A DNA stretch of 64,000 nucleotides from Pyrinomonadaceae bacterium (GTDB taxonomy: Bacteria; Acidobacteriota; Blastocatellia; Pyrinomonadales; Pyrinomonadaceae), in contig CAVWZW010000003.1 of NCBI GenBank assembly GCA_963759585.1, positions 68,547-132,546 on the forward strand, in the 5' to 3' direction. The notes under the pieces are model-generated. The model ran no database searches. It was not told the DNA's origin and was given only the letters and a program-made list of their open reading frames with translations. This document shows positions 774 through 57,655 of this stretch, piece after piece (position 1 is the first letter of the stretch; every line of letters begins with the position of its first letter). The position numbers and the translations under genes were made by a program.

Positions 774-3700
774 GTGTTTCGATTCCCCCGCGGCTTAAAG
801 TCGCGCCGTGCGCAAGTTGAGATGAAGCTCGGATTACTAGCATTATTTATCCTGTTCTTTTCTCCGGCGATTCAAGCCCAATCTGTTCGAGGCTTTAAAG
901 CTCCGGAAAAGCCAGCCAAGTCCGAGTTGCCAATTCAGTTGAGGGCCGCCCGCGGCCAAGCGCCTTTGCGCAAGTTGCATGACCACCTCAAGGCCGACTG
1001 GTCACACCTGAAGCGTCTACCGTCATTCATCCCAAGCGAACGCACGGACCAGCGGTCAAATAAACGGGTGCAACTCGGAGTGGTGAGGTCTTTCGCGAAG
1101 CCCCTACATCCTTCCATCGATAGTCGCCTCTATCAGCTTGCCGAGGGGGAGGTGCGCGTTTCGGGAATAGTCTCTGAAGGAGCGCTTTACACTCGCGTCC
1201 ACTTCACCAGTATGTCGCTGCCGGCGGGGGCCCGTGTATTTGTCTATTCATTAAAGAATCCGGACGAGTTTTATGGTCCATATGAAGGAAGAGGACCTTC
1301 CGAGGATGGCACATTCTGGACTCCTCCGGTTTCAGGGGATGCTGTTGCGATTGAATACTTCAGTCCGTATGGACGTGCGGAAACTGCGGGCGCACCGTTT
1401 ATCGTGTCAGAGATAAGCCACGTCTATCGCGATCCATTAAAGGCTACGACAGATGATGAAGCTGGGTCCTGCAATCTTGAGGTAACCAGCGACTGGACCG
1501 AGGTGGCGAAGTCTGTCGGCTTTCTCGAGTTTGTTGACAACGGTTCGGAGTACGCTTGCACTGGGACACTGCTAAACACCCAGGCCAACGATCAAACGCC
1601 GTATCTGCTTACTGCCAACCACTGCTTCAGCAGCCAGTCGGCCGCGCAATCTTTGCGCGTCTATTGGAACTACAACACTGGCGAGACGCCACCGGGAGGT
1701 ACTCCATTTACCGACGGCGCCAATCTCCTCGCCACAGCAACTTCAAGTGACTTCACTTTTGTGCGCTTGACTGGCTCTCTACCGGGTGGACTCTTTTTCT
1801 CCGGCTGGGACGCCACGACGACCAGTTTGAATACTCCGGTAACAGGCATCCATCATCCTGAGGGGTCACACAAACGAATCGCTTTTGGCGCCACTAACTC
1901 AACTTGTAACGTCGTTCTACCGGGGCCATGCTCTAACTTTACTCATGTTGCCTGGAACGCTGGTACGACTGAGGGAGGTTCATCCGGCTCAGGACTGTGG
2001 AAGGGAAGTCCTTCAAATCCTTTGTTGGTTGGATCGCTCACGGGTGGGGAGGCTTCATGCAGCAACCGGTTCGGAATTGATCACTACGGAAGCTTCAGCG
2101 CAACCTATCCAGGCATCGCTTCGTTTTTGGCTGGGAGCGGAGCCGATCTATCACTTATCAAGAGCACAGCTTTCGACCTCATCTCACCCGGAGCCCAAAT
2201 CGTCTACCTCCTGACTGTGACAAATCATTCAGCCTCGGTCGCCAGTGCGATTACGGTTACTGATAATCTTCCTTCTGAAGTTAGTTATGTTTCGTGTACT
2301 GCCGCAGGCGGCACATGCGGCGGCTCTGGAAACAATCGGACCGTACATTTTCCTTCGTTGGCTGCCGGAGCTTCTGCCACTGCGGTGATCGTTGCGACTG
2401 TTAATGCTTCGGTGTCCAACGCCACGGTGATTACTAACTCGGCAAGTGTGGTCGCTTCCACCTCTGATCCAAACCACGCTAACAACGGCGCCACGGCACT
2501 GGCGACGGTTCAATCTTCTCCTTTCGCGGCGAAATCGAATGGCAAAATTGCCTACGGCTCCGATCACGCCGGCACGACTGGCCCAAGCGGCTTTTACACA
2601 ATTAATCCAAACGGCACTAACGATTCAATCCTCTTCACGCTCGAGCCTTTTGGGTCGGCGCCCGCATGGTCACCTGATGGCTCGAAGATAGCGTACGGTA
2701 AAAGGAATGCCGGAATGTTTGACGCGGAGATCCATGTTGCCAATGCTGATGGAACCGGTTCACTGAAGATTGCAGGCAACGTCTTTAATCAGAATAGCCG
2801 GATCGCCTGGTCGCCAAACGGCGCGAAGGTCGCCTTCATTGGAACGGGCAATGGGATTTATATCGTCAACGCAAACGGCACCGGATTATCGCGACTACCA
2901 AATACACCTACATCGGTTAATGACCTGGCGTGGTCTCCCGATGGCTCAAAGATCGCCTACACGAGCGGTGCTGATGTCTTTGTCATGGGCATCGACGGCA
3001 GCAATCAGACCAATCTCACCCAGTTACGTCCTAAGATTCAGCTGGAGCAGGCGCTAAGTCGCTTTCCACGCTGGTCACCAGATGGGACGAAACTAATATT
3101 CGGCGCCGAGTCAAACAACTACAAAAATGTCTACATCATGAACGCGGACGGCTCGGCCCTCGCGCCCCTGGTTACCATGCACCAATCGATGCAGCCTGCC
3201 TGGTCACCTGATGGCGCCAGAATTACGTTTGTGGCACTTAACGGTTTGTATGTGGCGAATTCGGATGGAACGGGGGCGACTGCGCTTCCGAGCGGCGGAA
3301 TTTATAACTTCAAACCTGATTGGCAGCCGTTGGCGGTTAGTTCCCAAACGGTTCAGTTCAGCGCCGGTAATCAGGCCGTTTCCGAAGGTGCTGGACACGC
3401 GCAGATCCTGGTCACGCGAAGCGATCCGACCAATGCGGCTACGGTTGATTATGCAACCACGGACAATGCTGCGCTAACCGAATGCAATTTTGTGGATGGT
3501 TTGGGTTCCTCGCGTTGTGATTACGCTACCACCATTGGCACTTTGCGTTTCGCTGCCGGAGAGTCTTCGAAGACTATCTTCATCCCCGTGGTTGACGATG
3601 TTTACACCGAAGGCACTGAAACTTTTTCAATTACCCTCAGCAACGCAAGTGGATTAACTCTCGGTTCGCCCGCCTCAGTCCTAATCACGATTCAGGATAA

Positions 3701-4424
3701 TGACACGAGTAGCGGAGCAAACCCGATTGATGCGACAGACTTCTTCATTCGCCAACAGTACATCGACTTTCTTGGCCGCGAGCCTGACCCCGCGGGTTTG
3801 GCCGGCTGGCGCAACGTGATGAATAACTGCGGCATGACCGTAGCTCCTCCGTGTGATCGTATTGAAGTGTCGGCGGGCTTCTTCCGCAGTGAGGAGTTTC
3901 AGTCGCGCGGTTATTTCATCTATCGCTTCTTTTCTGCCCTCGGCAAGATTCCCGTGTCCGGGGAGTTCTATCCGGACTTCGCAAAGGTGAGCGGGTTTCT
4001 AACCTCTGAACAGTTGGAAGCGAACAAGGCTGCTTATGTGAATGAAGTCATGGCGCGTGCCGACTTCCAGACGAAGTACAGCGCTACGTTCGGCAACCCA
4101 ACAGCTTATGTAGACGCTCTGCTACAGACCGTAGGATTGCCGACTCATCCCGGCCGTGCGGGCTGGATCAGCACATTGAATAGTAATAACAACACGCAGA
4201 CGCGAGGGCAGGTGTTGAGGCAGCTGGTGGAGAGCGGCGAAGTCTTCAACAAATATTTCAACGAAGCCTTTGTAATCATGCAATACTTTGGTTATCTGCG
4301 CCGCACCGCGGATGCGTCGTATCTGAACTGGATACAGACGATGAATCAGACAAACGGCGACTACCGGACCATGATTAATGGTTTCATTAATTCGGCTGAG
4401 TATCGTCGCCGCTTTGGACCATAA
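774..4424 (+). CDS. Secreted multidomain protein: trypsin-like (S1) serine protease + DUF11-like repeat + PD40/TolB-type propeller repeats + Calx-beta + triple DUF4214-like module
   Basis: Protease motifs LLTANHC and GGSSGSGLW. Repeated AWSPDGSKIAY-type PD40 motifs. Calx-beta-like VQFSAGNQAVSEGAG...TIQDND. C-terminal DFFIRQQYIDFLGREPDPAGLAGW... The hydrophobic signal peptide is MKLGLLALFILFFSPAIQAQ. GTG at 774 has AAGGAG 8 nt upstream; ATG at 822 is an alternative start. The ORF-track start at 561 lies inside the repeat and is unlikely. Confidence 0.85.
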   Translation: MFRFPRGLKSRRAQVEMKLGLLALFILFFSPAIQAQSVRGFKAPEKPAKSELPIQLRAARGQAPLRKLHDHLKADWSHLKRLPSFIPSERTDQRSNKRVQLGVVRSFAKPLHPSIDSRLYQLAEGEVRVSGIVSEGALYTRVHFTSMSLPAGARVFVYSLKNPDEFYGPYEGRGPSEDGTFWTPPVSGDAVAIEYFSPYGRAETAGAPFIVSEISHVYRDPLKATTDDEAGSCNLEVTSDWTEVAKSVGFLEFVDNGSEYACTGTLLNTQANDQTPYLLTANHCFSSQSAAQSLRVYWNYNTGETPPGGTPFTDGANLLATATSSDFTFVRLTGSLPGGLFFSGWDATTTSLNTPVTGIHHPEGSHKRIAFGATNSTCNVVLPGPCSNFTHVAWNAGTTEGGSSGSGLWKGSPSNPLLVGSLTGGEASCSNRFGIDHYGSFSATYPGIASFLAGSGADLSLIKSTAFDLISPGAQIVYLLTVTNHSASVASAITVTDNLPSEVSYVSCTAAGGTCGGSGNNRTVHFPSLAAGASATAVIVATVNASVSNATVITNSASVVASTSDPNHANNGATALATVQSSPFAAKSNGKIAYGSDHAGTTGPSGFYTINPNGTNDSILFTLEPFGSAPAWSPDGSKIAYGKRNAGMFDAEIHVANADGTGSLKIAGNVFNQNSRIAWSPNGAKVAFIGTGNGIYIVNANGTGLSRLPNTPTSVNDLAWSPDGSKIAYTSGADVFVMGIDGSNQTNLTQLRPKIQLEQALSRFPRWSPDGTKLIFGAESNNYKNVYIMNADGSALAPLVTMHQSMQPAWSPDGARITFVALNGLYVANSDGTGATALPSGGIYNFKPDWQPLAVSSQTVQFSAGNQAVSEGAGHAQILVTRSDPTNAATVDYATTDNAALTECNFVDGLGSSRCDYATTIGTLRFAAGESSKTIFIPVVDDVYTEGTETFSITLSNASGLTLGSPASVLITIQDNDTSSGANPIDATDFFIRQQYIDFLGREPDPAGLAGWRNVMNNCGMTVAPPCDRIEVSAGFFRSEEFQSRGYFIYRFFSALGKIPVSGEFYPDFAKVSGFLTSEQLEANKAAYVNEVMARADFQTKYSATFGNPTAYVDALLQTVGLPTHPGRAGWISTLNSNNNTQTRGQVLRQLVESGEVFNKYFNEAFVIMQYFGYLRRTADASYLNWIQTMNQTNGDYRTMINGFINSAEYRRRFGP

Positions 4425-4446: not shown

Positions 4447-4634
4447 GCGCCTCCTTGGAGTGGGCGCCTCCTTGGAGTGCGGTGCCTTGTCACCGCTTTG
4501 GCCCGCGGCGGCTTGGCGCCGCCTTCTTCTAGTCAGGGGCAAGGTGGATTAGTGGGACGTGCAGGCACCGGCAAGGCTGCGACAGGTCGCAGCAGGCCAA
4601 AGCGGTGACAAGGCACCGCACTCCAAGGAGGCGC
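4447..4634. repeat. Family-A palindromic element, copy 2
   Basis: gcgcctccttggagtgcggtgccttgtcaccgctttggcc is a perfect reverse complement of ggccaaagcggtgacaaggcaccgcactccaaggaggcgc (4595-4634). The left end carries a tandem duplication of gcgcctccttggagtg. There is an inner small hairpin, ctgcgacaggtcgcag. Confidence 0.9.
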
Positions 4635-4743
4635 CCTGTCGACGGTCGTCTTCGCTAACGACGCAAGCTAAGGCTAACGGAGCACTACCTAAAGCCTGTA
4701 CGCCTGTACTGAATGCCGCGAATTGTGATAAAGGAATCCCTCG

Positions 4744-7700
4744 TTGAAAGTTACACGCAGCTACTTATCCGCAATCATTAATCCTCACGCAATTACTCGC
4801 TCGTTACTCGTCTTGTTAGCGGTCGTAATCTGCGCCGGATACCTATTGGCCAGCCCGCAGACGTCATCAAAGAAATCGAAACCCGGGTCTCGTCGCGCCA
4901 TAACTCAGCGTCAAAAAAAGATGCCCGCTACCAGTGCGCTGAAGAACTCGAACAACAAGGCGAGCAAGGAGCCGGCCAGAGGTCAGGCCGATAATCCTGA
5001 TGGCAGGTTGAATTGGTTTTTGTATCAACGCGCGTATCCCTTTAACGAAGTGCCGGCCAACGCGCGCAGGCTTGCCTGGGAATCGATTCCACGACGAAGT
5101 AAGTTTGGAGCCGATCTCTTGAGCGGCGAAGCCCTCAACAGTGTTTGGTCGCCCATTGGCCCACTGCCGACCACGTCAGCATTTCCCAACAACGGCGGGC
5201 CCACCTCGGGACGAATAAACGCGATTGCTGTGTCGCCTCTCGATCCGCAGATCGTCTTGATTGGATCTGCGACTGGCGGTATCTGGCGATCCAGCAACGG
5301 TGGAACCACGTTCGTTCCTGTTACTGACACACATGTTGATCTGGCGGTCGGGAGTATTGCTTTCGCGACTGCAAATCCGGCGATTGTCTATGCGGGAATG
5401 GGCGATAACGACCAGGGTTATTTTGGCTCCGGTGTGCTGCGTTCGATGGATGCCGGACTGACCTGGACCAGGATCAATAACACGACCTTGCCAGAGAAAG
5501 GCCAGTCAACAAAGATCCTGGTTGATCCCACAAACCCGAACAAGGTCTATCTGGCACAGTTTAATTATCTGGATGCGGTGAACAATATAAGTTTCGTGAA
5601 CGGAATCTACGTTTCGAATGATGGGGGAGTTAATTGGACGAGGACTCTAAACTGTTCAGTTCGCGACCTTGCCATTCATCCCACTAATCCCGCGATCCTC
5701 TACGCTGGGGTCTCGTTTCGACCTGGTGGGGTTCCAGGTCTCTACAAATCCATCGATGGCGGCCAGACCTGGAACAACATTTTAGCTTCGCCTTATGTGA
5801 GCTCATCGACAGCCACCCGCGACTTCCGTGTTGCTGTCACACCAGCCAATCCAAATCGCGTCTACGTCTATTTTGGCACTCGCACCACAAATCCCTTTGA
5901 AGTGCGACTTGAAATGAGTGACGACGCTGGAGCCACCTGGACCAACCGAGGTGTGATTGGAAACACCAGCCTCGATGTCGGCCAGTTCGGCTATAACACT
6001 TACCTGGCGGCAAGCTCGATCAATGCCGACACTATTTACGTTGGAACCCGCGATCTCTTCAGAAGCACTGACGGCGGCGTTACCTTCACCAATCTTTCAA
6101 CCTCCTTTGCGCCAAACGGAAACTACCAGCCTTTCTCTCAAAAGTTTCACGCGGATCAGCAGTCGTTTGCTTTCGATCCCGAGAGCAGTAGCACTTTCTA
6201 TGCAGGCAACGACGGAGGGCTATGGAAGACAACTGACAATGGTGTCTCCTTCACGTCGTTAAACAACACACTTTCTCTTACTCAGTTCGTAAGTATGGGC
6301 GTGCACCCAACTGACGCTGCCCGGTCCTTTGGCGGTACCCAGGACAACGGCACGCAGATGCGTCTGGCGGGAGGTAGCGGGTGGCGAGAGTTTAGTTCGG
6401 GCGACGGCGGCCGATTAGTAATCAATCCACTCAATCCTGAGATGGTGTTTACGAGTTATGTGAACGGCGTCATGAATCGCTATACGGCAAACGGACTTTC
6501 GTTTAGCGGGAAGATTTCCGACGCAGACAGTTTCGCAGAGCCATCATCCGGACCTCGAATAGCTTTTTACCCGCCAATCGTTAGCAATGGTGTAGACAGT
6601 AAAATTTATCTCGGCACATGGCGGCTGTTCATTTGTTCTGACTGTAACGACACAACCAGGCGATACAACACAGCGAACCTGCCCACCTGGACCGCACCCG
6701 GAGGCCTCACCGATCTAACGAATGGTGGGTCCGATGTTCTGAGCGCAATCGGCGTGGCGAAGAGTAACAACAACATCATCTACACGGGCTCGCGAGCCGG
6801 CCGGGCCATGGTGAGTGTGAACGGCGGAGTGGACTGGGCGAACATTACTAGTGGACTGCCTGCCAGATCGATAACGAGTATCACAGTAAGTCCAGCGGAT
6901 CCGTCCCTCGTTTACCTGACCGTGTCAGGTTATGGCACTGGTCACATTTTCCGATCCGTTAACGGCGGAGGGTCGTGGACAAACATCAGCACCACGTTGC
7001 CGAATATTCCTGTCAGCGCATTCCTGATCGATCCTCTGACGGCCACGACGTTTTATGCCGGCACCGATATAGGTGTGTTTCGGTCGACAGATAGCGGTGA
7101 AACGTGGACCGCCTTCAATGATGGTCTTCCCCCAGTGCCGGTGATGGCGCTCTCAGCCCAGGCATCAGGTTTGATTCAAATCGGAACCTACGGCAGGGGC
7201 GCATACCAGTTCTCTGCGAGCTCGACTCCATCACCAACACCCACGCCGACACCAACGCCAACACCGGGGCCGACGCCGACACAGTATTTTATCTCCGGCA
7301 CGGTGAAGGATAACGCTAACAATCCGGTGAGTGGCGTCTTAATAACATTCGAGATGAACGTGCAGGGAACAATTTTCTCTGCGATGACACAAACGGACGC
7401 GAGCGGAAACTACACGTCTGGAAATCTGGGGTGCCCTAACAACGTCAAGGTCACCCCGTCAAAGACCGGATTCACGTTTACTCCACCGGGCATCGTTCTC
7501 GTAAGTTCACAGTGTTTGACCGGCACCGGCACGGCCAACTTCACCGCCACCGCCACGCCGAGTGGAACTCAGTTTAGCGCCAGCAGCTTTGTGAGTGGAG
7601 AAAACAGCGGAAGCGTGCAGGCGACAGTCAGTCGAGGAGACACGGCAGGGGTAGCCACAGTTGAATACGTCACCAGCGATAATGCCGCGCTGAATGAATG

Positions 7701-8640
7701 TAATGTAATGAATGGAATGGGGTCGTCGCGTTGCGACTACGCCACGACGATAGGGACGCTTCGTTTTGCCATCGGAGAGAGTTCCAAGACAATCTTTATC
7801 CCCGTGGTCGATGATGCCTACGCCGAAGGCAATGAGGCGTTTACGATCACCCTGAGAAATCCTTCCGGAACAACCCTTGGAACGCAGGCCTCAGCCACCA
7901 TTACCATCCAGGACAACGACACAAACACAGGAGCCAACCCGATCGATGGCGTCGATTTCTTCATTCGCCAACAGTACATCGACTTTCTGGGTCGTGAACC
8001 CGACCCGGTAGGGTTGGCCGGTTGGCGCAATGTGTTGAACAACTGCGGCACAAGCGTCCCGCCGCCATGTGATCGTATCGAGGTCTCCGCAGGCTTCTTC
8101 CGGAGTGATGAGTTTCAGTCGCGCGGTTATTTTATCTATCGCTTCTTTTCAGCGTTGGGCAGAATTCCGGTATCGGGAGAGTTCTTCCCTGACTTTGCCA
8201 AGGTGAGCGGGTTTTTGACTGCTGAACAGTTGGAAGCGAATAAAGCAGCCTATGTTAATGAAGTCATGGCGCGGGCAGACTTTCAAACAAAGTACAGCTC
8301 GACCTTCAGTAATTCCACGGCTTACGTTGACGCGTTACTCCAGACTGTTGGCCTATCGAATCATCCTGGTCGTGCCGGGTGGATCAACTCGCTGAATGCC
8401 AACAACAACACGCAGACTCGCGGACAGGTGTTGAGGCAACTGGTGGAGAGCGGGGAAGTCTTTAACAAATACTTCAACGAAGCGTTTGTGATCATGCAGT
8501 ACTTTGGCTATTTGAGGCGCACAGCAGACGCCTCGTATCTAAACTGGATCCAGACTATGACTCAGACGAACGGCGATTACCGGATTATGATTAACGGCTT
8601 CATGAACTCGTCTGAGTACCGCCGCCGCTTCGGCCCGTAA
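4744..8640 (+). CDS. Secreted BNR/Asp-box (sortilin/Ycf48-like) beta-propeller protein + Pro/Thr linker + carboxypeptidase-regulatory-like domain + Calx-beta + triple DUF4214-like module
   Basis: About ten SxDxGxTW-type motifs (SMDAGLTWTR, SNDGGVNWTR, SIDGGQTWNN, SDDAGATWTN, STDSGETWTA...). Linker TPSPTPTPTPTPTPGPTPT. ISGTVKDNANNPVSGV. The C-terminal module matches its neighbours. TTG start at 4744 with AAGGAA 7 nt upstream, and an N-terminal TM/signal segment LLVLLAVVICAGYLLA. Confidence 0.85.
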   Translation: MKVTRSYLSAIINPHAITRSLLVLLAVVICAGYLLASPQTSSKKSKPGSRRAITQRQKKMPATSALKNSNNKASKEPARGQADNPDGRLNWFLYQRAYPFNEVPANARRLAWESIPRRSKFGADLLSGEALNSVWSPIGPLPTTSAFPNNGGPTSGRINAIAVSPLDPQIVLIGSATGGIWRSSNGGTTFVPVTDTHVDLAVGSIAFATANPAIVYAGMGDNDQGYFGSGVLRSMDAGLTWTRINNTTLPEKGQSTKILVDPTNPNKVYLAQFNYLDAVNNISFVNGIYVSNDGGVNWTRTLNCSVRDLAIHPTNPAILYAGVSFRPGGVPGLYKSIDGGQTWNNILASPYVSSSTATRDFRVAVTPANPNRVYVYFGTRTTNPFEVRLEMSDDAGATWTNRGVIGNTSLDVGQFGYNTYLAASSINADTIYVGTRDLFRSTDGGVTFTNLSTSFAPNGNYQPFSQKFHADQQSFAFDPESSSTFYAGNDGGLWKTTDNGVSFTSLNNTLSLTQFVSMGVHPTDAARSFGGTQDNGTQMRLAGGSGWREFSSGDGGRLVINPLNPEMVFTSYVNGVMNRYTANGLSFSGKISDADSFAEPSSGPRIAFYPPIVSNGVDSKIYLGTWRLFICSDCNDTTRRYNTANLPTWTAPGGLTDLTNGGSDVLSAIGVAKSNNNIIYTGSRAGRAMVSVNGGVDWANITSGLPARSITSITVSPADPSLVYLTVSGYGTGHIFRSVNGGGSWTNISTTLPNIPVSAFLIDPLTATTFYAGTDIGVFRSTDSGETWTAFNDGLPPVPVMALSAQASGLIQIGTYGRGAYQFSASSTPSPTPTPTPTPTPGPTPTQYFISGTVKDNANNPVSGVLITFEMNVQGTIFSAMTQTDASGNYTSGNLGCPNNVKVTPSKTGFTFTPPGIVLVSSQCLTGTGTANFTATATPSGTQFSASSFVSGENSGSVQATVSRGDTAGVATVEYVTSDNAALNECNVMNGMGSSRCDYATTIGTLRFAIGESSKTIFIPVVDDAYAEGNEAFTITLRNPSGTTLGTQASATITIQDNDTNTGANPIDGVDFFIRQQYIDFLGREPDPVGLAGWRNVLNNCGTSVPPPCDRIEVSAGFFRSDEFQSRGYFIYRFFSALGRIPVSGEFFPDFAKVSGFLTAEQLEANKAAYVNEVMARADFQTKYSSTFSNSTAYVDALLQTVGLSNHPGRAGWINSLNANNNTQTRGQVLRQLVESGEVFNKYFNEAFVIMQYFGYLRRTADASYLNWIQTMTQTNGDYRIMINGFMNSSEYRRRFGP

Positions 8641-8661
8641 CTAACTACGGGGCTTGCACGC

Positions 8662-8838
8662 CCCTTGGAGTGCGGTGCCTCCTTGGAGTGCGGTGCCTTG
8701 TCACCGCTTTGGCCTGCTGCGACCTGTGGCAGCTTTAGGGGGTTGACTAACTTCTCAGGTAAAGAAGCGGCGCCAGGCCGCCGCGAACCAAAGCGCCGAC
8801 AAGGCGGCGCACTCCAAGGAGGGCTCCAAGGAGGCGCC
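8662..8838. repeat. Family-A palindromic element, copy 3
   Basis: Left arm ccttggagtgcggtgccttgtcaccgctttggcc, right arm accaaagcgccgacaaggcggcgcactccaaggag. Both ends carry a short tandem duplication of the ccttggag / ctccaagg core. Confidence 0.85.
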
Positions 8839-9043: not shown

Positions 9044-9574
9044 GTGAGAAGACTGCGCTCTACAATTCGATACGCCAGCAAAAAACTACGCCGCCAGACG
9101 GTGTTAACCGCTTTGGTGGCTACTGTGATTCTCGCCGCAGGGGCGATGACGGTGCTTTCACGACAAAGTGCGGGGACGAGAGAGGAGTCGCGGATGGCTG
9201 ATAAAACCACAGTTGTGAATTCGAAAATGGCGCATCAGGACGCTCATCTCACGGATGACTCTGGGCGCCAGGAGCTAACGGCCGAAGACGCGCAGAAACT
9301 GGGAGCAGGCCTCAAAGAATTAGTTAATCAGTCGACCGAAGGCCTGGTCGAGACTAAGCACGCCGATGGAAGTGTATCGGTCGATCTGGATGGCCGCTTC
9401 CAAAATGTGACGGTTGCCCGAATCAACAAGGACGGAAGCCTTGAGCAATCGTGTGTCGATAATCCACAGGCGGCAGGCGCGTTCTTCGGTATCGATCCAA
9501 AACTGATCGATAACACCGCGGAAAGTGGCAGTACAAAACGACCGAAGGTTAATCCGGCTAAAACAAGGAATTAA
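9044..9574 (+). CDS. Hypothetical small secreted or membrane-anchored protein
   Basis: GTG start with AAGGAGA 6 nt upstream. N-terminal basic region plus hydrophobic segment TVLTALVATVILAAGAMTVL. I recognise no family. It ends 23 nt before the metalloprotease gene. Confidence 0.6.
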   Translation: MRRLRSTIRYASKKLRRQTVLTALVATVILAAGAMTVLSRQSAGTREESRMADKTTVVNSKMAHQDAHLTDDSGRQELTAEDAQKLGAGLKELVNQSTEGLVETKHADGSVSVDLDGRFQNVTVARINKDGSLEQSCVDNPQAAGAFFGIDPKLIDNTAESGSTKRPKVNPAKTRN

Positions 9575-9597: not shown

Positions 9598-12072
9598 ATG
9601 AAGCATATAATCTCCAAACTCCCTACGCTCTTACGTGCTGCTATCGTCGGCGTCATGGCATCTACCTGCGCTTTCGGCGCCAACGTAGTCGTTGAAAACG
9701 CCGATGGTCCTAATATGGGTTTCAATGACCCCACACCAGTTTCCCCGGTTGGCGGCAATCCAGGAACAACCCTGGGCCAGCAGAGGCTGCTCGCGCTTCA
9801 GTATGCAGCCAGCATTTGGGGCGCAAGGCTGAGCAGCGGACCCACGATTACAATTCGCGCGACCTGGGAATCACTGACCTGCACTGCAAACACGGCAGCC
9901 CTGGCTTCAGCTGGAAATAGTGGTGGCATTTTTAGAGACTTTGCCGGCGCGGTCCCAAACACCTGGTACGGAAACGCACTTGCCAATGCGATCAGGAACA
10001 TCGACTCAAACGGTTCCACGCATGAAATTAATGCTCGCTTCAATCTGAATATTGGTACCCCGGGATGTTTGGCGAGCGCTCACTGGTATTACGGACTGGA
10101 TACCAATCACGGTGACGGCGGCGTTAACCTCGTAAGCGTGGCTATGCACGAATTCGCGCACGGGTTGGGATTTCAAACCTTCACGAGCTCCAGCACAGGC
10201 GCACAGGCGTTTGACGTTCCCAGTATCTATGACAGGTTTCTAATGGATAACTCCACCGGCAAACTATGGCCTGAAATGATCGATGCGGAGCGGCAGGCTT
10301 CCGCCATCAACACGACCCATCTTGTTTGGAACGGCCCCAGGGTTAAAGCGGATGTGCCGAGTGTACTCAAGACGCCCTTGCTCAAGGTGAATACGCCGCC
10401 TGCGATTGCAGGCAACTATGAAATTGGCACGCCTGAATTCGGTCCGGCACTGTCGTCGCCGGGGATAACGGCTAATGTTGTCCAGGCGAGTCCAATAGAC
10501 GGTTGCGCAGCTCTCACAAATGGCGCCGCGATTTCTGGAAGGATCGCGCTAATCGACCGGGGCGGTTGCAATTTTACGGTAAAGGTCAAGAATGCTCAGA
10601 ATGCCGGCGCGGTTGGAGCGATCATCGTCAACAATGTAGCCGGTGGTCCTCCAGGGATGGGAGGTTCAGATCCCACAATCACAATACCAAGCGTGTCGAT
10701 TACGGACGTTAACGGCAATGCCATCAAAGCTCAGCTGGCTTCAGGTGTGAATGCTTCGTTGTTGCTTGATGCCTCGACACCTGCCGGTGCTGACTCGGCT
10801 GGGCGCATCCGAATGTTCAGCCCCAGCCCAGTCGAAGGCGGTTCATCGGTTTCACACTTTGACGAGACTCCCTTTCCTAACCAGTTGATGGAACCCAACA
10901 TCAGCAGCGATCTAACACACAACGTTACGCCGCCCTTTGATTTGACGACCTCTTTATTTGCAGATCTCGGTTGGCAGTTGCTCGGGCTCCCGAACACACT
11001 GCAACTGAACGCGAGCAATTTCAACTTCTCTGAAGGTGCAGGGAGTGCTCAGGTCGTCGTAACGCGAACGGATACATCGACCGCGGCGACAGTCGACTAC
11101 TCCACCAGCGACAGCGCGGCACTAAACGAATGCAATGTGATAAATAACCTTGGTTCGTCGCGCTGCGACTACGCCACGACGCAGGGCACACTTCGGTTTG
11201 CCGCGGGTGAAGCTTCAAAAACAATCTTCATTCCACTCGTGGACGATGGTTACGCGGAGGGGACCGAGACCTTCACGATTACTTTGACTAATGCAACCGG
11301 AACGACGCTCATCACGCCGTCTTCAGCAAGCATCACGATCCAGGACAATGAAGGCAGCACTGGAGCGAACCCGATTGACGGTGTTGATTTCTTTATTCGC
11401 CAGCAGTACATCGACTTCCTTGGCCGCGAACCTGACCCGGCGGGATTGGCCGGCTGGCGCAATGTGCTCAACAACTGCGGAACAACTGTGGCCCCGCCAT
11501 GTGATCGTATTGAAGTGTCTGCCGGCTTCTTCCGTTCGGAAGAGTTTCAGTCGCGCGGTTACTACATCTACCGCTTCTTTTCCGCGGTGGGAAAGATTCC
11601 CGTCTCGGAAGAGTTTTATCCTGATTTCGCGAAGGTCAGCGGTTTCTTAACGGCCGAGCAGTTGGAAGCGAACAAGGCGGCCTATGTTAATGAAGTGATG
11701 GCGCGTGCGGAATTTCAGACGAAGTACGCTTCCACCTTCGGTAACCCGACAGCTTATGTTGACGCGTTGCTGCAGACGGTTGGCCTACCGAATCATCCGG
11801 GTCGAGCAGGCTGGATTAACACGCTGAACGCCAATAACACCACGCAGACGCGCGGTCAGGTGTTCAGACAGTTGGTGGAGAGCGGGGAAGTCTTTAACAA
11901 GTATTTCAACGAAGCGTTTGTGATCATGCAGTATTTCGGTTACCTCCGCCGCACAGCGGATGCGTCGTATCTGAACTGGATTCAGACCATGAATCAGACC
12001 AATGGCGACTACCGGATCATGATCAATGGCTTCATGAACTCAGCTGAATACCGGCGCCGCTTCGGACCCTGA
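9598..12072 (+). CDS. Secreted zinc metalloprotease-like protein with PA (protease-associated) domain + Calx-beta + triple DUF4214-like module
   Basis: Signal peptide MKHIISKLPTLLRAAIVGVMASTCAFG. HEFAHGLGF (HExxH). PA-like GRIALIDRGGCNFTVKVKNAQNAGAVGAIIVNN. The C-terminal module matches its neighbours. Confidence 0.85.
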   Translation: MKHIISKLPTLLRAAIVGVMASTCAFGANVVVENADGPNMGFNDPTPVSPVGGNPGTTLGQQRLLALQYAASIWGARLSSGPTITIRATWESLTCTANTAALASAGNSGGIFRDFAGAVPNTWYGNALANAIRNIDSNGSTHEINARFNLNIGTPGCLASAHWYYGLDTNHGDGGVNLVSVAMHEFAHGLGFQTFTSSSTGAQAFDVPSIYDRFLMDNSTGKLWPEMIDAERQASAINTTHLVWNGPRVKADVPSVLKTPLLKVNTPPAIAGNYEIGTPEFGPALSSPGITANVVQASPIDGCAALTNGAAISGRIALIDRGGCNFTVKVKNAQNAGAVGAIIVNNVAGGPPGMGGSDPTITIPSVSITDVNGNAIKAQLASGVNASLLLDASTPAGADSAGRIRMFSPSPVEGGSSVSHFDETPFPNQLMEPNISSDLTHNVTPPFDLTTSLFADLGWQLLGLPNTLQLNASNFNFSEGAGSAQVVVTRTDTSTAATVDYSTSDSAALNECNVINNLGSSRCDYATTQGTLRFAAGEASKTIFIPLVDDGYAEGTETFTITLTNATGTTLITPSSASITIQDNEGSTGANPIDGVDFFIRQQYIDFLGREPDPAGLAGWRNVLNNCGTTVAPPCDRIEVSAGFFRSEEFQSRGYYIYRFFSAVGKIPVSEEFYPDFAKVSGFLTAEQLEANKAAYVNEVMARAEFQTKYASTFGNPTAYVDALLQTVGLPNHPGRAGWINTLNANNTTQTRGQVFRQLVESGEVFNKYFNEAFVIMQYFGYLRRTADASYLNWIQTMNQTNGDYRIMINGFMNSAEYRRRFGP

Positions 12073-12097
12073 TGTTTATAGCCTCAGGCGCTGGGAC

Positions 12098-12300
12098 GCC
12101 TCCTTGGAGTGCGGTGCCTTGTCACCGCTTTGGCCCGCGGCGGCCTGGCGCCGCTTCCTTTCGGTAGGGTTAGATCATTCGGAGGGGCGGGTAGGCGCAG
12201 CGAAAGCTGCGACAGGTCGCAGCAGGCCAAAGCGCCGACAACCGGGGTCCCCAGCGCGGCAGCCGCGATGGGGTGGCGTGGCGGCGCACTCCAAGGAGGC
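12098..12300. repeat. Family-A palindromic element, copy 4
   Basis: The left arm is identical to copy 1 except for one base. The right arm is interrupted (ggccaaagcgccgacaa ... ggcggcgcactccaaggaggc). It has the same inner ctgcgacaggtcgcag hairpin as copy 2. Confidence 0.85.
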
Positions 12301-12401
12301 ACCCTCGCCAGGAGGCGCTTCACCAACGACGCAAGCTAAAGCTTGTTACGCCTGTAGTTCTTCGCTGGCCTTTTCGTTTGGCCCCGAATACTCTCTTCCA
12401 C

Positions 12402-13550
12402 ATGCGCGTTGGACTCGACGGTATTCCGCTGGCAAATCCGCGCACCGGCGTCGGCCATTACACTTTCGAACTAGCGCGCCACCTCGCCATCATCTCCGCA
12501 CCAGACGAATTCGAACTCCTTTCGCCCTTTTCCTTTAATCCACCACTCGATGATCACGATTTGCCGGCGGGGCTTCGGGCAGTCCAGGTTAAAGTAAATT
12601 CACTTAGCCGGCGTTGGTTTGCAGTGGGCCTGCCTCTGCACCTGAGGCACTCGAAGTTTGATCTTTTTCATGGCACAAACTACGAGGTTCCGCTCTGGAG
12701 TAAATCTCCGTCGGTGCTAACCGTTCACGACCTCTCTTTGTTTCTCCTCCCGGAAACTCACGAACCGCATCTTGTGCGTCGCGGTCGCAGGCGACTGCCA
12801 ATCATGGCGCGCAGAGCCGATTGCCTGATCACGCCGTCGCAAACAATTAAGCGCGAGGTGATTCAACATCTTCGGATTGGTGACGCCCAAATTGTGGTCA
12901 TCCCCGATGCGCCGCGTAGCGTATTCCGGCCCATGCCTCTCGAGGAAACAGTAGCCACGCGAACAAAGCTTGGCATAGAACCCGAGTTTATTCTGTTCAC
13001 CGGAACTCTGGAGCCGCGGAAGAATTTAACGACACTGCTGAAAGCGTTTGACGAGATCATGCGCAAAACTGCGCTACGTCCTCAATTGGTGATTGCCGGC
13101 AAAGAGGGTTGGTTAATGGACGAACTGCGGCAGCAAATGGAGCAGCGTGACTTAAAGGATCGGCTGCGTTTCACAGGGTATTTGCCAGATGATGAGTTGC
13201 GAGCTCTTTATTCTTCATGCCGGGTTTTTGTTTACCCATCGCTTTATGAGGGTTTCGGATTGCCGCCGCTTGAAGCAATGGCTTGCGGGGCGCCCGTGAT
13301 AACCAGCAGCATCTCGAGTCTGATCGAGACTACGGGAACGGAGGCCGCACGACACGTTGCAGCCTTGGACGTCGAAGGCCTGGCCCAAAGCATTGTTGGT
13401 CTCTTGGAGAATGACAGCGAGCGGAAGTATCTTTCATCGGCCGGAATAAAACACGCAGCGGGATTTAGTTGGCACAAAGTGGCTGCTTCGACGTTGGAAG
13501 TTTACAGACAGGTGATGAAGCAGAAATCCGTATCTGTCCACCATTCATAA
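12402..13550 (+). CDS. Glycosyltransferase family 1 (GT4-type)
   Basis: [28 protein letters not shown] start typical of GT4. C-terminal [20 protein letters not shown] motif. The ORF-track extension from 12273 runs into the repeat. Confidence 0.85.
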
Positions 13551-15829: not shown

Positions 15830-15973
15830 TGTTCAACTTTTGGGTTGGGTTTTTGCTGGCCAAGACGCAAGCTGAAGCTTGAACTCTGAACTGCGCGCCC
15901 CTGGCCCACCTCTCGTTAGATTGCTCGTGACGGATACACCGTTTCCCTGATTACCGATTACTTGAATGACCTG

Positions 15974-17692: not shown

Positions 17693-18174
17693 TGTCGGAC
17701 ATGCTTCAGGAAGCTCTGAACAAGTCCATTTTGGATTTGTACTCGAAGCGATTACGTAATTTCAGCCCAAGGGTTGCCCATGAGGCCTGCACAAGAAGTT
17801 TTCGAGCCTAGTCCGCAAAGCGGACGACTGATGATAGCCCAGCAGTTCACTGCTGGGAGTAGGACGAACGTAAGGCGCAGTCCGTGAAGCGGACGGCTGA
17901 AAATGTAGCTCATCTAGACAGTATCATTCAGCCGTCCGCTGCACGGACTACGTTTTCTCGCGCGTCGATCCCAGCAGTAAACTGCTGGGCTATTATCAGC
18001 CGTCCGCTCAACGCGGACTGGAAACCAATTTTTTGTACAAGGCGTCCTTGCGATCGCACGACAAGCTGAACAGCTTGTCGTAGGTGGTTCAGAACCCCAA
18101 TGTGCGACGCTACAAGCAGCATCATTTCTTGAGTGTTGTGAATCCAAACGGCAAGCTGAAGCATGTCGGACATT
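17691..18174. repeat. Family-B nested palindromic MITE-like element, copy 1 (core 17782-18044) bounded by 19-bp inverted repeats
   Basis: aatgtcggacatgcttcag (17691-17709) matches the reverse complement of ctgaagcatgtcggacatt (18156-18174) at 18 of 19 bases. The core consists of sub-hairpins gtccgcaaagcggac, cccagcagttcactgctggg and gtccgtgaagcggac, mirrored in the right half. Confidence 0.85.
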
Positions 18175-19163: not shown

Positions 19164-19198
19164 TTTGAGACGACTTTTCAACAGGTGGTTTCCCTGGT

Positions 19199-19436
19199 TT
19201 TAGCCCGCGGTAGCGGGCGCTAGCGTAAAGCCTGGGGTGGAGCGTAGCGGAACCCCAGGAACCGTCGTCGGAAATATCTAAAGCCCGCGAAGCGGCCGAC
19301 AGTGGCATCACTACATGATTGTTACCGCACCGGCTACCGCCCACTCCGCGGGCTTTGCAAGTTCTTGGGGGATGATCCTGGGGTTCCGCTACGCTCCACC
19401 CCAGGCTTTACGCTATCGCCCGCTACCGCGGGCTAG
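19199..19436. repeat. Family-C palindromic element, copy 1
   Basis: ctagcccgcggtagcgggcgctagcgtaaagcctggggtggagcgtagcggaaccccagga (19199-19260) is the near-perfect reverse complement of 19376-19436. A related copy lies at 30348-30642. Confidence 0.9.
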
Positions 19437-19512
19437 ATCAAGCCAGCCAAACACAACAAAGGCCAGTTTCGTTTGAAACTGGCCTTCGCTCATTTGCGCT
19501 TGTCGTGCGACT

Positions 19513-20367
19513 TTAGAAACGGTTGCGATATTCCGCGGAGTTCATGAAGCCGTTAATCATCGTGCGGTAGTCACCGGTCTGGTTCATGGTATTGATCCAG
19601 TCGAGATAGAGGATGTCCGGATCGCGACGGAGATAGCCGTGATACTGCATCACTACGAAAGCCTCGTTGTAATACTTGTTGTAAACCTCTGACGCCTCGC
19701 TGATCGCTCTCAACACCTGCGCCCGAGTCTTGGTGGCCGCGTTCAGATCATTAATCAACTGCTGCGAGTTGCCTATGGTAACGCCCGCGGTGCTTACCAG
19801 CGTATTCACGAAGTCAGCGTTGCTTAAAGCGTCATACTTCGTCTTGAATTCCTGCCGCGCCATGAAGTCGTTAATGAAGGCCACTTTGCTGGCTTCTAGC
19901 TGCTGGTCGGTCTGGAATCCACTAACGCGACGCGCGTCGGGAATGAACTCGGCATACAGGGGCACGCGCTTAAAGCTCACCGAATAGAAGCGGTAAACGA
20001 AGTAGCGTCGTACCTGAAACTCGTCGGAGCGAAAGAAAGCGGAGCTGACTTCAATTCGATCGCAAGGCGGTGGGGTGGTAGTGCCGCAACCGTTCATGAC
20101 ATTCATCCAGCCCTGGAAACCACCGGGCTCCGGCATACGCGCCAGGAAGTCGATGTAGTGCTGTTGAATGAAAAAATCGTTGTCATCAATGGTGATTGGC
20201 GTGTTCGTGCCTGGACGCAAACGCAGCGGCTTCACCTTAACGTTGCCGTAATAAAGCTCCGAGGGAAGGGTCGGGTCTTCGGTGACGATTCTGAGTGTGG
20301 GGCTCTGCCCAAGCGCGCTAACAGCCGTGAGCGCGATTACAAAAAGGGTTATGGCTAACTTCATCAT
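19513..20367 (-). CDS. Small secreted protein made almost entirely of the triple DUF4214-like module
   Basis: Signal peptide MMKLAITLFVIALTAVSALGQ with AGGAG 5 nt upstream of the ATG at 20367. DFFIQQHYIDFLARMPEPGGFQGWMNVMNGCGTTTPPPCDRIEVSSAFFRSDEF ... MNGFMNSAEYRNRF is colinear with the C-termini of the 0-12 kb genes. Confidence 0.85.
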   Translation of the reverse strand: MMKLAITLFVIALTAVSALGQSPTLRIVTEDPTLPSELYYGNVKVKPLRLRPGTNTPITIDDNDFFIQQHYIDFLARMPEPGGFQGWMNVMNGCGTTTPPPCDRIEVSSAFFRSDEFQVRRYFVYRFYSVSFKRVPLYAEFIPDARRVSGFQTDQQLEASKVAFINDFMARQEFKTKYDALSNADFVNTLVSTAGVTIGNSQQLINDLNAATKTRAQVLRAISEASEVYNKYYNEAFVVMQYHGYLRRDPDILYLDWINTMNQTGDYRTMINGFMNSAEYRNRF

Positions 20368-20589
20368 AATGCTCCTATCCTCGCCTGATGTTCGACGATT
20401 CAGTTTGTCGAGATCTTTCATGAGGAGGGGCGTCCAATATCGTCATCGATGCTCTGGCAGCGTTGAGACAGTCAGTAGTTTAGGTCGGCCCGTGTAGTAC
20501 TGTCAAACCGAAATATTTAGATGCGTGAACGGGGAAAAAAGACTGAAAATTAATGGGTGATTAAAGGGGAAACGCCACAGATTCAGGGA

Positions 20590-31832: not shown

Positions 31833-32055
31833 CTCAGCGCCAAAGGCGCGAAATATGAAAGCCTGGGCCAACGGCCCAGGTAAAGATGAATGAGTCTCCG
31901 AAGCGCTGAAGGCGCGAAACGGAGTATGATGTAAAGACAACAATGAATTCGTCTGATCAACCACCTTCCGCGCCTTCAGCGCTAAGAAGATTTATGGCGT
32001 GTCCCACCTGGGGCGTTGCCCCAGGCTATTACATTTCGCGCCTTTGGCGCTGAGC
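31833..32055. repeat. Family-D nested palindromic element
   Basis: cctcagcgccaaaggcgcgaaat (left) pairs with atttcgcgcctttggcgctgag (right). Inner hairpins are cctgggccaacggcccagg and cctggggcgttgccccagg, and gcgctgaaggcgcg pairs with cgcgccttcagcgc. Confidence 0.85.
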
Positions 32056-32062
32056 TTCGAAT

Positions 32063-34450
32063 TCACTTTGTGGTCCGCTTCCACCATTTATCGAAGGTGG
32101 CAGCCTTCCTCTTCGGTAGGGCTCGAAAGTTACCAAGCTGCCCATCTTCTGAGTTGGGCTGTAGTTCAACGGACCAGCCTGCGCCTTCAAGGAAATTTTT
32201 CAGTGCATGGCGGTCGAGCTTCTCCGGCATTCCTTCGACCCTGGCGCCCTCCGGCACTATCTCGGTTGGAATTTCGTGGTATTCGCCGCAGATCTCTTCA
32301 ATGGAGTTCAGGAATTTCGACGAGAACAGAATTGGATATTCTGCTCCCTCGCAATCAATCTTGAGCATGCGGATCTTTTTCTTGAAGCCGTTAGTTGCCT
32401 CATCGAGAATATCGTCCAGCCCCACGGTTTGAATTGGCACCCCTTCAATGTTGTAGACCACCGCGTGTCCGCCCGTGTTTGCGTCTGAATCGGCGTCGAG
32501 ACGATCGTTGAAGAGAGTCACGCTGGGAATGTCCGAGCGCCAAACGGCCAGATTGCGACACTCGGCACGCTCACCAAACTGCTGCAGGTTTTTGAGGGTG
32601 ATGGCGTGATTCACAGGGTGAGCTTCAAACGCATATACCTTGCCCGCCCCACGCTTCAACGCTGCATATGAAAAACTGCCGATGTGAGCGCCGATGTCTA
32701 TCACCACGTCGTCGTCATCGAACTTCTGAGGCAGAGGATATTCCTCGAGGTCAACTACATGCTGAAAGATCCGGCGATCATCGGTGTTTGGCCGCGCGTA
32801 AAATTTATGCCCGGTTTCGGAAACACAATAGTCGAGATCAACTGTTTCTAATTTGTTTTCAACGGTGACCTGAATTGCGTATTCCGAATAAACTTTTGGC
32901 GCGGGCTTCTCGTCAACTGTCCCTCGACTTGCCGGCTCCCAGTCCACTTTCTTGATAGGAGCCGAGCGTCGCCGGGATTTGCGCGCGACGACAGCGAAAT
33001 CACGAGCACCGAAGAACCAGATATCGAGCTCCTGCGATCCGGGATTGTCATTTCTAAACGGACTGTCCTCGACCGGATTCAAATACTGAAGCTGCACGTC
33101 TTCGAAGCCGTTGTGCCTCAGGATGAACTCAATCGTCTCAGGGAAGATCGGTTTCTTGTGACCAGGATCAGCGTAGAAATTACAAGCGGCAACTGTCAGG
33201 TTCTTCGGGTTTGGAGATTCGTAGATCACGATCCCGCCGGGACGGAGCGTTCTCATCGTCTCATCAACCAGTTCAATCAAACTTTCAAACGGCAGGTGTT
33301 CGACCAGATGAAAGCCGGTCACGACGTTGAAACTTTCGGAGGGCCGTGTCCGAAGGTAAGCGAGCAAATCTCCTTCAACCACCTCAAGCCCCCGAGAGCG
33401 AACCTGCTCGACCATGATCGGGTTGCTTTCGACCCCCAACGCCTGGAGACCTTCTTCCTTCAATAGCTCCAACCACTCGCCACGCCCGCAGCCAAGGTCG
33501 ACTATGCCATCGACGAGGTGGGCCCCTTTCAAAAGCGGAAGATAGTGTCGCAACCCTTCTTTGATATCTTCGCGCTTGCCGCGGAACTGCTCCGTAAAGG
33601 CCGCAAACAATTCATCGAGTTTTCCTGCGTCGGTAGCCGCCCGTCCGTTTTCCCCGGATGCTTGAGTCGCCTGCAGTTTTTCTAAGCGCGGTTTGATTTC
33701 ATCGCGCAGCTTTTCCAAACTTTGAATAATTTTACGCTGTTCGCGGAAAAGCCCGACCACCTGCTGATGTTGCAGTTCCGCAAATCTCCTTTGCTCCCGC
33801 GACAAGTGGGCCAGCTCCTCGAGAAATGGTTTGGTCGCCTGAACAGAGGCCTTGCTCAACTGATTAATGTGGGACGCCATCAGCTCCTGTTGCGACAGCG
33901 CATACTCTTCAAACTGACGACGACGGTGGATGGTGGCAGGCAGGCGAGCAAATGCAACTATCATCTCGATCACATAGCCGATAACCGGTACGTGATAAAG
34001 CCGCCGGTGCAGTGGCCGGGGCTTGAGGCCTTCGACTGAGACGTTTCTACCTTTGCCTTCTGGTGAAAATCGGAGGCTGGCGAGGATATCGAGCTTGTCG
34101 AAACGACCGCTGCGCAGATTGTTGAGAAACTGGTTCAGTCCAACTTCGTCCGGCTCACGCTTTAGGATCGCGCGATAGGCGTTCCAGACGAATGTGTGAT
34201 CGTGGTATTGCAGCAGCTCGTTGACGTGATACCGATCGTCGGGACTGCGGACAAACTCTGGCTGTAATTCGAGCGGCGGAAGCTCTAGTTGTTCATCCCG
34301 TGGATTCGCAACCGATGTTAGAAAATTTCGTAACTCAAGCGATGCGCCGGCAAGAGAGGTCTGCCCACTAGACTCACGGCGTGCGACGGCTTCACGAATT
34401 TCAGCCATCAACTGTTCGATGTTAATTTCGGAATTACGAGTCTCGACCAT
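32063..34450 (-). CDS. WbdD-like chain-terminator candidate: N-terminal DUF4214-like repeat + coiled coil + class I SAM methyltransferase + FkbM-type methyltransferase
   Basis: HTFVWNAYRAILKREPDEVGLNQFLNNLRSGRFDKLDILASLRFSPEG (DUF4214-like). A long heptad-rich region. VDLGCGRGEWLELL...LRPGGIVIYESPN. VIDIGAHIGSFSYAAL...MLKIDCEGAEYPIL (FkbM-like). Confidence 0.7.
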   Translation of the reverse strand: MVETRNSEINIEQLMAEIREAVARRESSGQTSLAGASLELRNFLTSVANPRDEQLELPPLELQPEFVRSPDDRYHVNELLQYHDHTFVWNAYRAILKREPDEVGLNQFLNNLRSGRFDKLDILASLRFSPEGKGRNVSVEGLKPRPLHRRLYHVPVIGYVIEMIVAFARLPATIHRRRQFEEYALSQQELMASHINQLSKASVQATKPFLEELAHLSREQRRFAELQHQQVVGLFREQRKIIQSLEKLRDEIKPRLEKLQATQASGENGRAATDAGKLDELFAAFTEQFRGKREDIKEGLRHYLPLLKGAHLVDGIVDLGCGRGEWLELLKEEGLQALGVESNPIMVEQVRSRGLEVVEGDLLAYLRTRPSESFNVVTGFHLVEHLPFESLIELVDETMRTLRPGGIVIYESPNPKNLTVAACNFYADPGHKKPIFPETIEFILRHNGFEDVQLQYLNPVEDSPFRNDNPGSQELDIWFFGARDFAVVARKSRRRSAPIKKVDWEPASRGTVDEKPAPKVYSEYAIQVTVENKLETVDLDYCVSETGHKFYARPNTDDRRIFQHVVDLEEYPLPQKFDDDDVVIDIGAHIGSFSYAALKRGAGKVYAFEAHPVNHAITLKNLQQFGERAECRNLAVWRSDIPSVTLFNDRLDADSDANTGGHAVVYNIEGVPIQTVGLDDILDEATNGFKKKIRMLKIDCEGAEYPILFSSKFLNSIEEICGEYHEIPTEIVPEGARVEGMPEKLDRHALKNFLEGAGWSVELQPNSEDGQLGNFRALPKRKAATFDKWWKRTTK

Positions 34451-38746: not shown

Positions 38747-38807
38747 GTTCGGAGTACAACCTTCAGGTTGCCTCTTGCCCACCGTAACCTGAAGTTGTAC
38801 GCCGAAC
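38747..38807. repeat. Hairpin/inverted repeat
   Basis: gttcggagtacaaccttcaggtt pairs with aacctgaagttgtacgccgaac. The right arm resembles the aagc(c/t)tgtacgcctgta motif seen at 4691 and 12340. Confidence 0.6.
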
Positions 38808-57493: not shown

Positions 57494-57655
57494 ACCTCCT
57501 TGGAGTGCGGCGCCTTGTCACCGCTTTGGCCTGCGGCGGCTTGGCTCCGCAATCGTGGCTAGAATCGCGCAATTCGTGAGGAGGCTCACGGCCACCGTGG
57601 TCGCGCCAAGCCGCGACCGGCCAAAGCGCCGACAAGGCGGCGCACTCCAAGGAGG
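57494..57655. repeat. Family-A palindromic element, copy 5 (between glnA and glnE)
   Basis: acctccttggagtgcggcgccttgtcaccgctttggcctgcggcggcttggc pairs with gccaagccgcgaccggccaaagcgccgacaaggcggcgcactccaaggagg. Confidence 0.9.

Follow-up and report, generated by a model that had tools for sequence, protein, structure and literature searches.

The DNA analysed here, a 64,000-nt stretch of contig CAVWZW010000003.1 from a Pyrinomonadaceae bacterium (below, the window), opens with four tandem genes on the + strand, g1 to g4, that have in common a C-terminal module of about 350 aa made of a Calx-beta domain and, behind it, DUF4214 repeats. Their products are large and probably secreted proteins. The 3' ends of g1 and g4 are nearly identical over a tract that crosses the stop codon and ends inside a palindromic element located behind each gene. 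We consider it likely that ectopic gene conversion between g1 and g4, which are sister paralogs, recently produced this short patch. We observed that the two genes form a mosaic with statistical support, that constraint at the nucleotide level is absent in the codons of the tract, and that the right end of the tract is the end of homology.

A previous inspection of the letters (the sequence-only reading) had listed four differences between 361-627 and 11904-12170. The ungapped comparison of these two segments of 267 nt gave exactly those four mismatches, at 428 (T/C), 445 (G/C), 534 (C/T) and 602 (T/C). It had also described the near-identity as covering the gene 3' end, the stop codon, the spacer and the left arm of the palindromic element. 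This description was borne out, with a slightly longer extent: the tract occupies 353-627 in the g1 copy and 11896-12170 in the g4 copy (both on the + strand), thus 275 nt with 4 mismatches and 98.5% identity, and the last upstream mismatch is at 352. Within it are the last ≈58 codons of the two genes, the TGA stop (527-529 and 12070-12072), an 18-nt spacer and the left unit of the element (548-627 and 12091-12170). The residual differences are all of neutral type: two are synonymous, the third falls in the spacer and the fourth in the loop of a hairpin. Slight real divergence that followed the event would look like this. The two copies are situated 11.5 kb apart, in direct-repeat orientation, in the same tandem array. 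A BLAST search of the whole window against itself detected no further repeat of at least 100 nt with at least 85% identity.

Outside of the tract the picture is different. In the upstream part (1-352) g1 and g4 have 37 mismatches (89.5% identity), and the many synonymous differences that had been noticed there amount to 28 codons, compared to 5 codons with non-synonymous differences. Overall, the divergence between the two genes is ≈10%, and ≈27% at the third codon positions. On the 3' side of 627/12170 the ungapped identity drops at once to 7-11 matches per 30 nt, the level of random sequences. Uniform identity, which the sequence-only reading had named as the pattern of a simple recent duplication, was not seen over the sites compared.

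The divergence within the tract (4/275) was significantly lower than in the flank of the same pair (37/352). The maximum chi-square value, computed over 627 colinear sites, was 20.7 with the breakpoint at 352 (permutation p = 56/20000 = 0.0028, i.e., ≈0.003), while Fisher's test applied to the split given in the sequence-only reading produced p = 4.5e-6. A GENECONV-type runs test, which that reading had asked for, was made on the 146 coding sites polymorphic among the four genes. The test identified the g1-g4 fragment 358-528, with 2 mismatches at 41 polymorphic sites (p = 0.025). None of the remaining pairs was significant after correction for six pairs. For example, a g3-g4 fragment considered as a second tract had p = 0.019 uncorrected and was not significant over the six pairs. 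No further homogenised tracts among g2, g3 and g4 were found within the 1.2 kb compared.

The other gene pairs served as controls for local constraint. The last 55 residues are nearly identical in all four proteins. At the third codon positions g1 and g4 differ in 33 of 120 cases upstream versus 1 of 55 inside the tract; for the other five pairs the counts were 52-56 of 120 upstream versus 21-24 of 55 in the tract codons (38-44%). Since these five pairs are ≈40% different at third positions despite nearly identical protein sequences, the tract codons are free to drift. Therefore, the identity of g1 and g4 comes from recent common descent of the DNA and not from constraint. The post-stop spacer (18-21 nt) had 1 mismatch between g1 and g4, and could not be aligned in g2 and g3. 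With the five control pairs and the unalignable spacers, the contrast goes beyond what local constraint or mutation rate would produce. Together with the significant breakpoint at 352/353, these results agree with the recent conversion or recombination proposed in the sequence-only reading. That reading had also suggested that conversion keeps the C-terminal tag uniform, and this part did not hold: the tag is nearly identical in all four proteins though most pairs are ≈40% divergent at third positions, and just one of the six pairs has a tract. Because the protein tail is constant while silent sites have diverged in five of the six pairs, the uniformity of the tag is attributed to purifying selection.

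We propose that the patch arose by non-reciprocal homologous recombination of the RecA type between paralogous gene tails. The sister paralogs g1 and g4 would first have diverged; later, a heteroduplex or repair-synthesis tract of ≈275 nt would have overwritten one of the tails with the sequence of its paralog. On the left the patch begins within the part of the gene that encodes DUF4214, at 352/353. The conserved element half behind the genes, the left unit, may have acted as a passive second homology block, which carried the patch over the stop codon and across the heterologous spacer; the patch would have halted at 627 for lack of a pairing partner sequence beyond. A crossing of the unalignable spacer is conceivable because the conserved left unit behind both genes supplies homology. 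The left units of all copies of the element could be aligned to ≈627, and not further.

The palindromic element (family A) is located 18-40 nt behind each of the four array stops. There are five copies in the window, all of them intergenic. Each copy has two inverted units, ≈70-80 nt each, on either side of a loop that varies, and forms a hairpin of very high stability. A unit has two parts, a conserved 34-nt head (CTCCTTGGAGTGCG..GCCTTGTC..CGCTTTGG) containing a 6-bp hairpin, and a second hairpin, rich in GC and of variable sequence, with a T-rich tail behind it. Element E1 behind g1 (548-729) includes the left unit 548-627, the loop and the right unit ≈650-729; its arms 548-609 and 668-729 are 89% complementary, and the region 540-740 folds with a free energy (dG) of -142 kcal/mol (z = -10). 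For the second element that was folded, dG was -150 kcal/mol (z = -7). Element E2 behind g2 (4453-4645) has arms that are 86% complementary, E3 is positioned behind g3 (8674-8830), and E4 behind g4 (12091-12310) has its left unit 12091-12170 inside the tract and a right unit resembling that of E2. Element E5 (57496-57654), a member of the same family situated between glnA and glnE, is unrelated to module genes. In E2, E3 and E4 the left and right units carry different distal hairpins, while the right half of E1 resembles the right half of E3. Such mismatched unit subtypes mean that the two halves of an element do not have one shared history. We also observed that the right unit of E4 has a 38-nt insertion at 12242-12279, itself able to form a hairpin, that breaks the conserved head hairpin, and that E2 and E3 begin with a tandem duplicate of the head motif CCTTGGAGTG(C/G)G (4451-4482 and 8661-8693).

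The two intra-unit hairpins maintain their pairing by compensatory changes: for 16 units from the window and one relative, 25 cells were changed on both sides, versus 9.3 in shuffles and 1-4 in slid controls. The idea that each arm alone is a strong independent fold was rejected, as the single-unit z values, from -0.1 to -3.2, were weak in comparison with shuffled sequences. A consensus scan showed at the end of the left unit a terminator-like GC hairpin with a T-rich tail (594-620, + strand), with a twin at 12137-12163 and GCGGCGGCTTGGCGCCGC followed by TTCCTTTCGG at both places. This distal hairpin has a 6-bp GC stem and then TTCCTTTC; its T-run is interrupted, and the total number of hits in the region was no higher than in shuffles. 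The Rfam search of the element gave no family at the gathering threshold, with only chance-level matches at E up to 10. Besides the window, three copies were present in the loci of one relative, and the core was found in 36 metagenome contigs.

Judged by its relatives, the window belongs to Pyrinomonadaceae-like Acidobacteriota. The module had its best match in the metagenome-assembled genome SMAG_U9010, with 89% amino-acid identity and ≈80% nucleotide identity, and the genome collection searched gave nothing above this 89%. Look-ups of the exact proteins of g4, g2 (from the ATG at 822) and the aminotransferase had no match, and neither had the g1/g4 spacer in an exact scan of metagenome contigs. 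The related genomes have at least 9-14 module paralogs each, many of them 85-93% identical to each other and often arranged in arrays. Two parallel cases were found among these genes. In JBBPIC010000065.1 (locus L009) the segments 3116-4141 and 9725-10751 of adjacent array genes are 99.8% identical over 1027 nt, while the heads of these genes are Flg_new in one and Sortilin + BACON + PPC in the other. The left edge of this tract is abrupt and close to the module start, and the tract runs ≈40 nt past the stop, to where a small hairpin repeat of another kind ends. In the complete chromosome OY969111.1 (loci L044 and L054), two genes located 2 Mb apart are ≈99% identical over ≈970 nt, from 4786 to the stop codon. 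The homology ends there, with unrelated downstream DNA and no common repeat; one of the heads is unassigned and the other is FG-GAP x11 + Calx-beta x4. Taken as the whole module, L044 4695-5749 and L054 9630-10684 make a tract of ≈1 kb, in the 97-99.8% range, with unrelated heads.

The right end is the end of the available homology in all three tracts (the window, L009 and L044/L054), and copying of the whole module between genes with unrelated heads does happen in the relatives. For the suggestion of the sequence-only reading that conversion could swap heads onto the tag there was no sign in the window; the relatives, however, do have 97-99.8% identical module tracts common to genes with unrelated heads. 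In the same loci we noted that the head of the L009 module gene (1143-3012) contains 270-nt tandem coding repeats with Flg_new domains, 85-95% identical. Most module genes of the two closest relatives have, right behind the stop, a small repeat other than family A. A small hairpin repeat, GAGTACAACCTTnAGGTTGC, had 22 copies in the loci of relatives (L001-L016), directly after the stop of most module genes and sometimes in tandem (L002 9998, 10101 and 10202). In the window, it occurs at 38752-38771 (+ strand) and, as a variant, at 15867-15886 (- strand), while the module genes of the window have the family-A doublet at the post-stop position instead.

The observed contrast could have origins other than the copying of one tail onto the other. 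Local constraint over 275 nt (RNA structure, a regulatory 3' end or codon bias), or transposition of the element with the gene end, is scarcely credible. The core of the element is strongly conserved in all copies, as would be expected under constraint or transposition; conversely, the divergence of the other five pairs at the third positions of the same codons, as well as the unalignable spacers, speaks against constraint, and the gene is colinear, without insertion or target duplication. The sequence-only reading had allowed for the gene end and the element being co-mobilised. Among the 36 metagenome contigs with the core, 59 of the 72 flanks were at least 200 nt long, and none of these 59 encodes the module. 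From such comparisons, constraint and transposition look already largely refuted. It is also very unlikely that the tract is an assembly artefact, in which reads of two similar tails were partly merged and one copy became the consensus of the other. Nothing observed speaks for it directly; the tract retains four differences, each of them at a neutral-type site, it is flanked on either side by unique, contiguous sequence, and a similar tract is present in the complete chromosome-level record OY969111.1. A mosaic made in the reverse direction is unlikely. Here, g1 and g4 would be very recent duplicates (≈1.5% diverged throughout), and the upstream part of one of them, to 352, would later have been overwritten by a third DUF4214 paralog from outside the window, ≈10% diverged. 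Such an event would still be gene conversion, with the converted segment being the other one. The abundance of 85-93% identical paralogs (at least 9-14) per related genome makes donors plausible, and the upstream extent of g1 is hidden by the window start. However, the 37 sites that differ upstream show no runs in which g1 or g4 agrees with g2 or g3, and the abrupt right end at 627 would need a duplication edge that halves an element. With no such runs of matching sites, g2 and g3 in particular were rejected as donors of the upstream part.

The palindrome could also have taken a more active part than that of a homology block. The hairpin or cruciform of the doublet would be cut at its tip (e.g., by an SbcCD-type nuclease) and repaired from a paralog, with the conversion running leftward from the element centre into the gene. 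The tract does end on the right at the junction of the left unit and the central loop, the hairpins are very stable, and in three of the four array elements the subtype of the left unit is not that of the right one, which would fit separate histories of the halves. However, the end of homology alone predicts the same boundary; of the tracts in the relatives, one ends behind a complete small hairpin repeat and the other at the stop, without a palindrome; and g2 and g3 have the same element but no tract. We give a low chance to this initiation at the palindrome. Nucleation by the element, which the sequence-only reading had raised, is not required, with 627 being the end of alignable element homology and the relatives' tracts ending elsewhere. 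A broader version would make the doublet an active break site, where cleavage at the centre repeatedly seeds ectopic repair, so that the module and the 3' untranslated end are exchanged as a cassette among dozens of surface-protein genes; its chance is slimmer still. If it were true, the repeats would drive the homogenising or re-assorting of tails, and the mismatched halves of E2, E3 and E4, as well as the tract end at the element centre, would be its footprints.

Several points weigh against the favoured explanation, the copying of one tail onto the other by gene conversion. The runs test on coding sites alone was just moderately significant (p = 0.025). The genes g1 and g4 are mutual nearest relatives in both segments (0.895 and 0.989); therefore, the tree topology is unchanged and branch length alone differs. 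Moreover, g1 is truncated by the window start, the other paralogs of the genome are outside the window, and the contrast is known from the assembled sequence. A donor beyond the window, or the upstream part as the converted segment, thus stays conceivable.

The four genes of the array differ in their heads. Gene g1 (2-529, + strand) is the 3' part of a DUF4214-module gene (Pfam) truncated by the window start, with the frame open from base 2. Gene g2 (774-4424, + strand) has a DUF11 + PD40 beta-propeller head and a Calx-beta + DUF4214 tail (Pfam, NCBIfam); the candidates for its start are GTG at 774 and ATG at 822, and its N-terminus, by sequence reading, is signal-peptide-like. Gene g3 (4744-8640, + strand) has a head of BNR/Sortilin repeats and the same tail (Pfam, NCBIfam). 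Gene g4 (9598-12072, + strand), also with this tail, was characterised by Pfam, NCBIfam and a PDB sequence search; its head has a PA domain alone, plus weak metalloprotease similarity. A fifth, shorter DUF4214 gene, g5, is on the - strand (19513-20421). The 'enzyme heads' of the sequence-only reading are only partly true: the heads of g2 and g3 are the propeller with DUF11 and the BNR/Sortilin repeats, and that of g4 is the PA domain with its weak metalloprotease similarity.

All five genes belong to the DUF4214 family (PF13946), with Pfam scores of 34.2 (g1), 51.1 (g2), 49.3 (g3), 52.3 (g4) and 63.9 bits (g5) compared to the cut-off of 23.2. For the DUF4214 module, the PDB sequence search gave nothing below E = 0.06, and the AlphaFold2 model, with a mean predicted local distance difference test (pLDDT) score of 52.5, was unusable. 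In the literature on DUF4214 we found no functional work in Acidobacteria, and none on the Calx-beta + DUF4214 module.

The surroundings of the array showed several features. A small open reading frame (ORF) between g3 and g4 (9044-9574) has a match to the post-PEP-CTERM-1 domain and a GspI-like pseudopilin N-terminus; its counterpart is kept after a module gene in a relative (L003, 11850-12138). On the other side, the array adjoins a large cluster for glycan biosynthesis and export (12273-35776), with genes for GT4, DegT aminotransferase, epimerase, TPP enzyme, GT2, YfhO, DUF2079 and Wzt ABC transporter. This arrangement of array and cluster is syntenic in several relatives (L020, L044, L063 and L069). 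The mechanical ORF start of the GT4 gene, GTG at 12273, falls within the right arm of E4; translation probably begins at the ATG near 12403 instead. DUF4214 also occurs at the N-terminus of a methyltransferase of the cluster (32063-34450, - strand), which leads to the speculation that DUF4214 may bind the cell-surface glycan made by the cluster.

Other palindromic repeats were also present in the window. Matches to the Rfam 'sRNA' family Acido-Lenti-1 were located at 31836-31880 (-), 32007-32051 (+) and 17810-17857 (-), the last one with a partner at 17969-18008; they form intergenic inverted doublets. The arms 17819-17858 and 17969-18008 are 93% complementary. By its arrangement, Acido-Lenti-1 behaves here like a repeat of the REP (repetitive extragenic palindromic) or REPIN type rather than a single sRNA gene. 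A third palindromic family (19194-19260 and 19376-19442, arms 94% complementary) is situated just downstream of g5. It adjoins a classical terminator hairpin at 19460-19488 and is also present in a metagenome locus (L078).

The g1-g4 tract is a clean, small case of an extragenic repeat that extends recombinational homology past the stop codon, so that the gene tail and the 3' flank are copied together. As the two parallel cases in relatives indicate, genes whose heads are quite unlike each other occasionally acquire copies of one another's large C-terminal Calx-beta + DUF4214 module in these surface or secreted proteins of Pyrinomonadaceae. For phylogenies of the family this means that module trees will not follow gene trees; the finding also bears on the annotation of the arrays and on the question of module function. 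No new mechanism is revealed: the mechanism is ordinary, and only the family is new. Paralogs are known to undergo gene conversion in which repeats provide the homology, and we have a new instance of it among proteins that have been little studied.

Ectopic gene conversion between bacterial paralogs is known for the duplicated tuf genes, for rRNA operons and for families of surface proteins. Similarly to these systems, the g1-g4 tract is a patch of near-identity in older, diverged paralogs on one replicon, with ends in homology and with synonymous sites homogenised. Unlike classical conversion, the patch passes the stop codon and a non-homologous spacer into an extragenic repeat, the distal homology block. 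Unlike concerted evolution, it affects one of the six array pairs.

REPINs are mobilised by RAYT transposases. By the published definition (bioRxiv 10.1101/2024.10.14.618302, citing Bertels and Rainey 2011), a REPIN is a pair of REP sequences in inverted orientation, within 200 bp, that folds into a hairpin. The five doublets of the window are REPIN-like and have this arrangement: inverted units of ≈70-80 nt make a long hairpin, and the copies are several and extragenic. Compensatory changes in the intra-unit hairpins characterise each unit as an imperfect palindrome, with single-unit energies weakly better than those of shuffles. On the other hand, the units exceed classical REPs in length, Rfam has no family that covers them, and among the window ORFs of at least 150 aa there was no family match to a RAYT/Y1 transposase. 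REP sequences were reportedly described by Shyamala, Schneider and Ames in 1990 as recombination join-points of tandem duplications. Like such join-points, the palindromic repeats of the window give short homology between differing loci, and hybrid halves are observed behind g2, g3 and g4; unlike them, the outcome here is a non-crossover patch, and it is the coding module, not the repeat, that supplies the larger part of the homology.

Secreted proteins with the T9SS C-terminal domain, with PEP-CTERM and with similar tags make up families in which the heads vary and a C-terminal domain for sorting or anchoring is common to all members. NCBIfam names M36 peptidases after their C-terminal tag. 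The module genes resemble such families in that unrelated heads (propeller, BNR, PA, FG-GAP, Flg_new) are joined to one conserved C-terminal module with many paralogs per genome. Unlike the known sorting tags, the Calx-beta + DUF4214 module is, with ≈350 aa, far larger, and the likeness suggested here is one of domain architecture.

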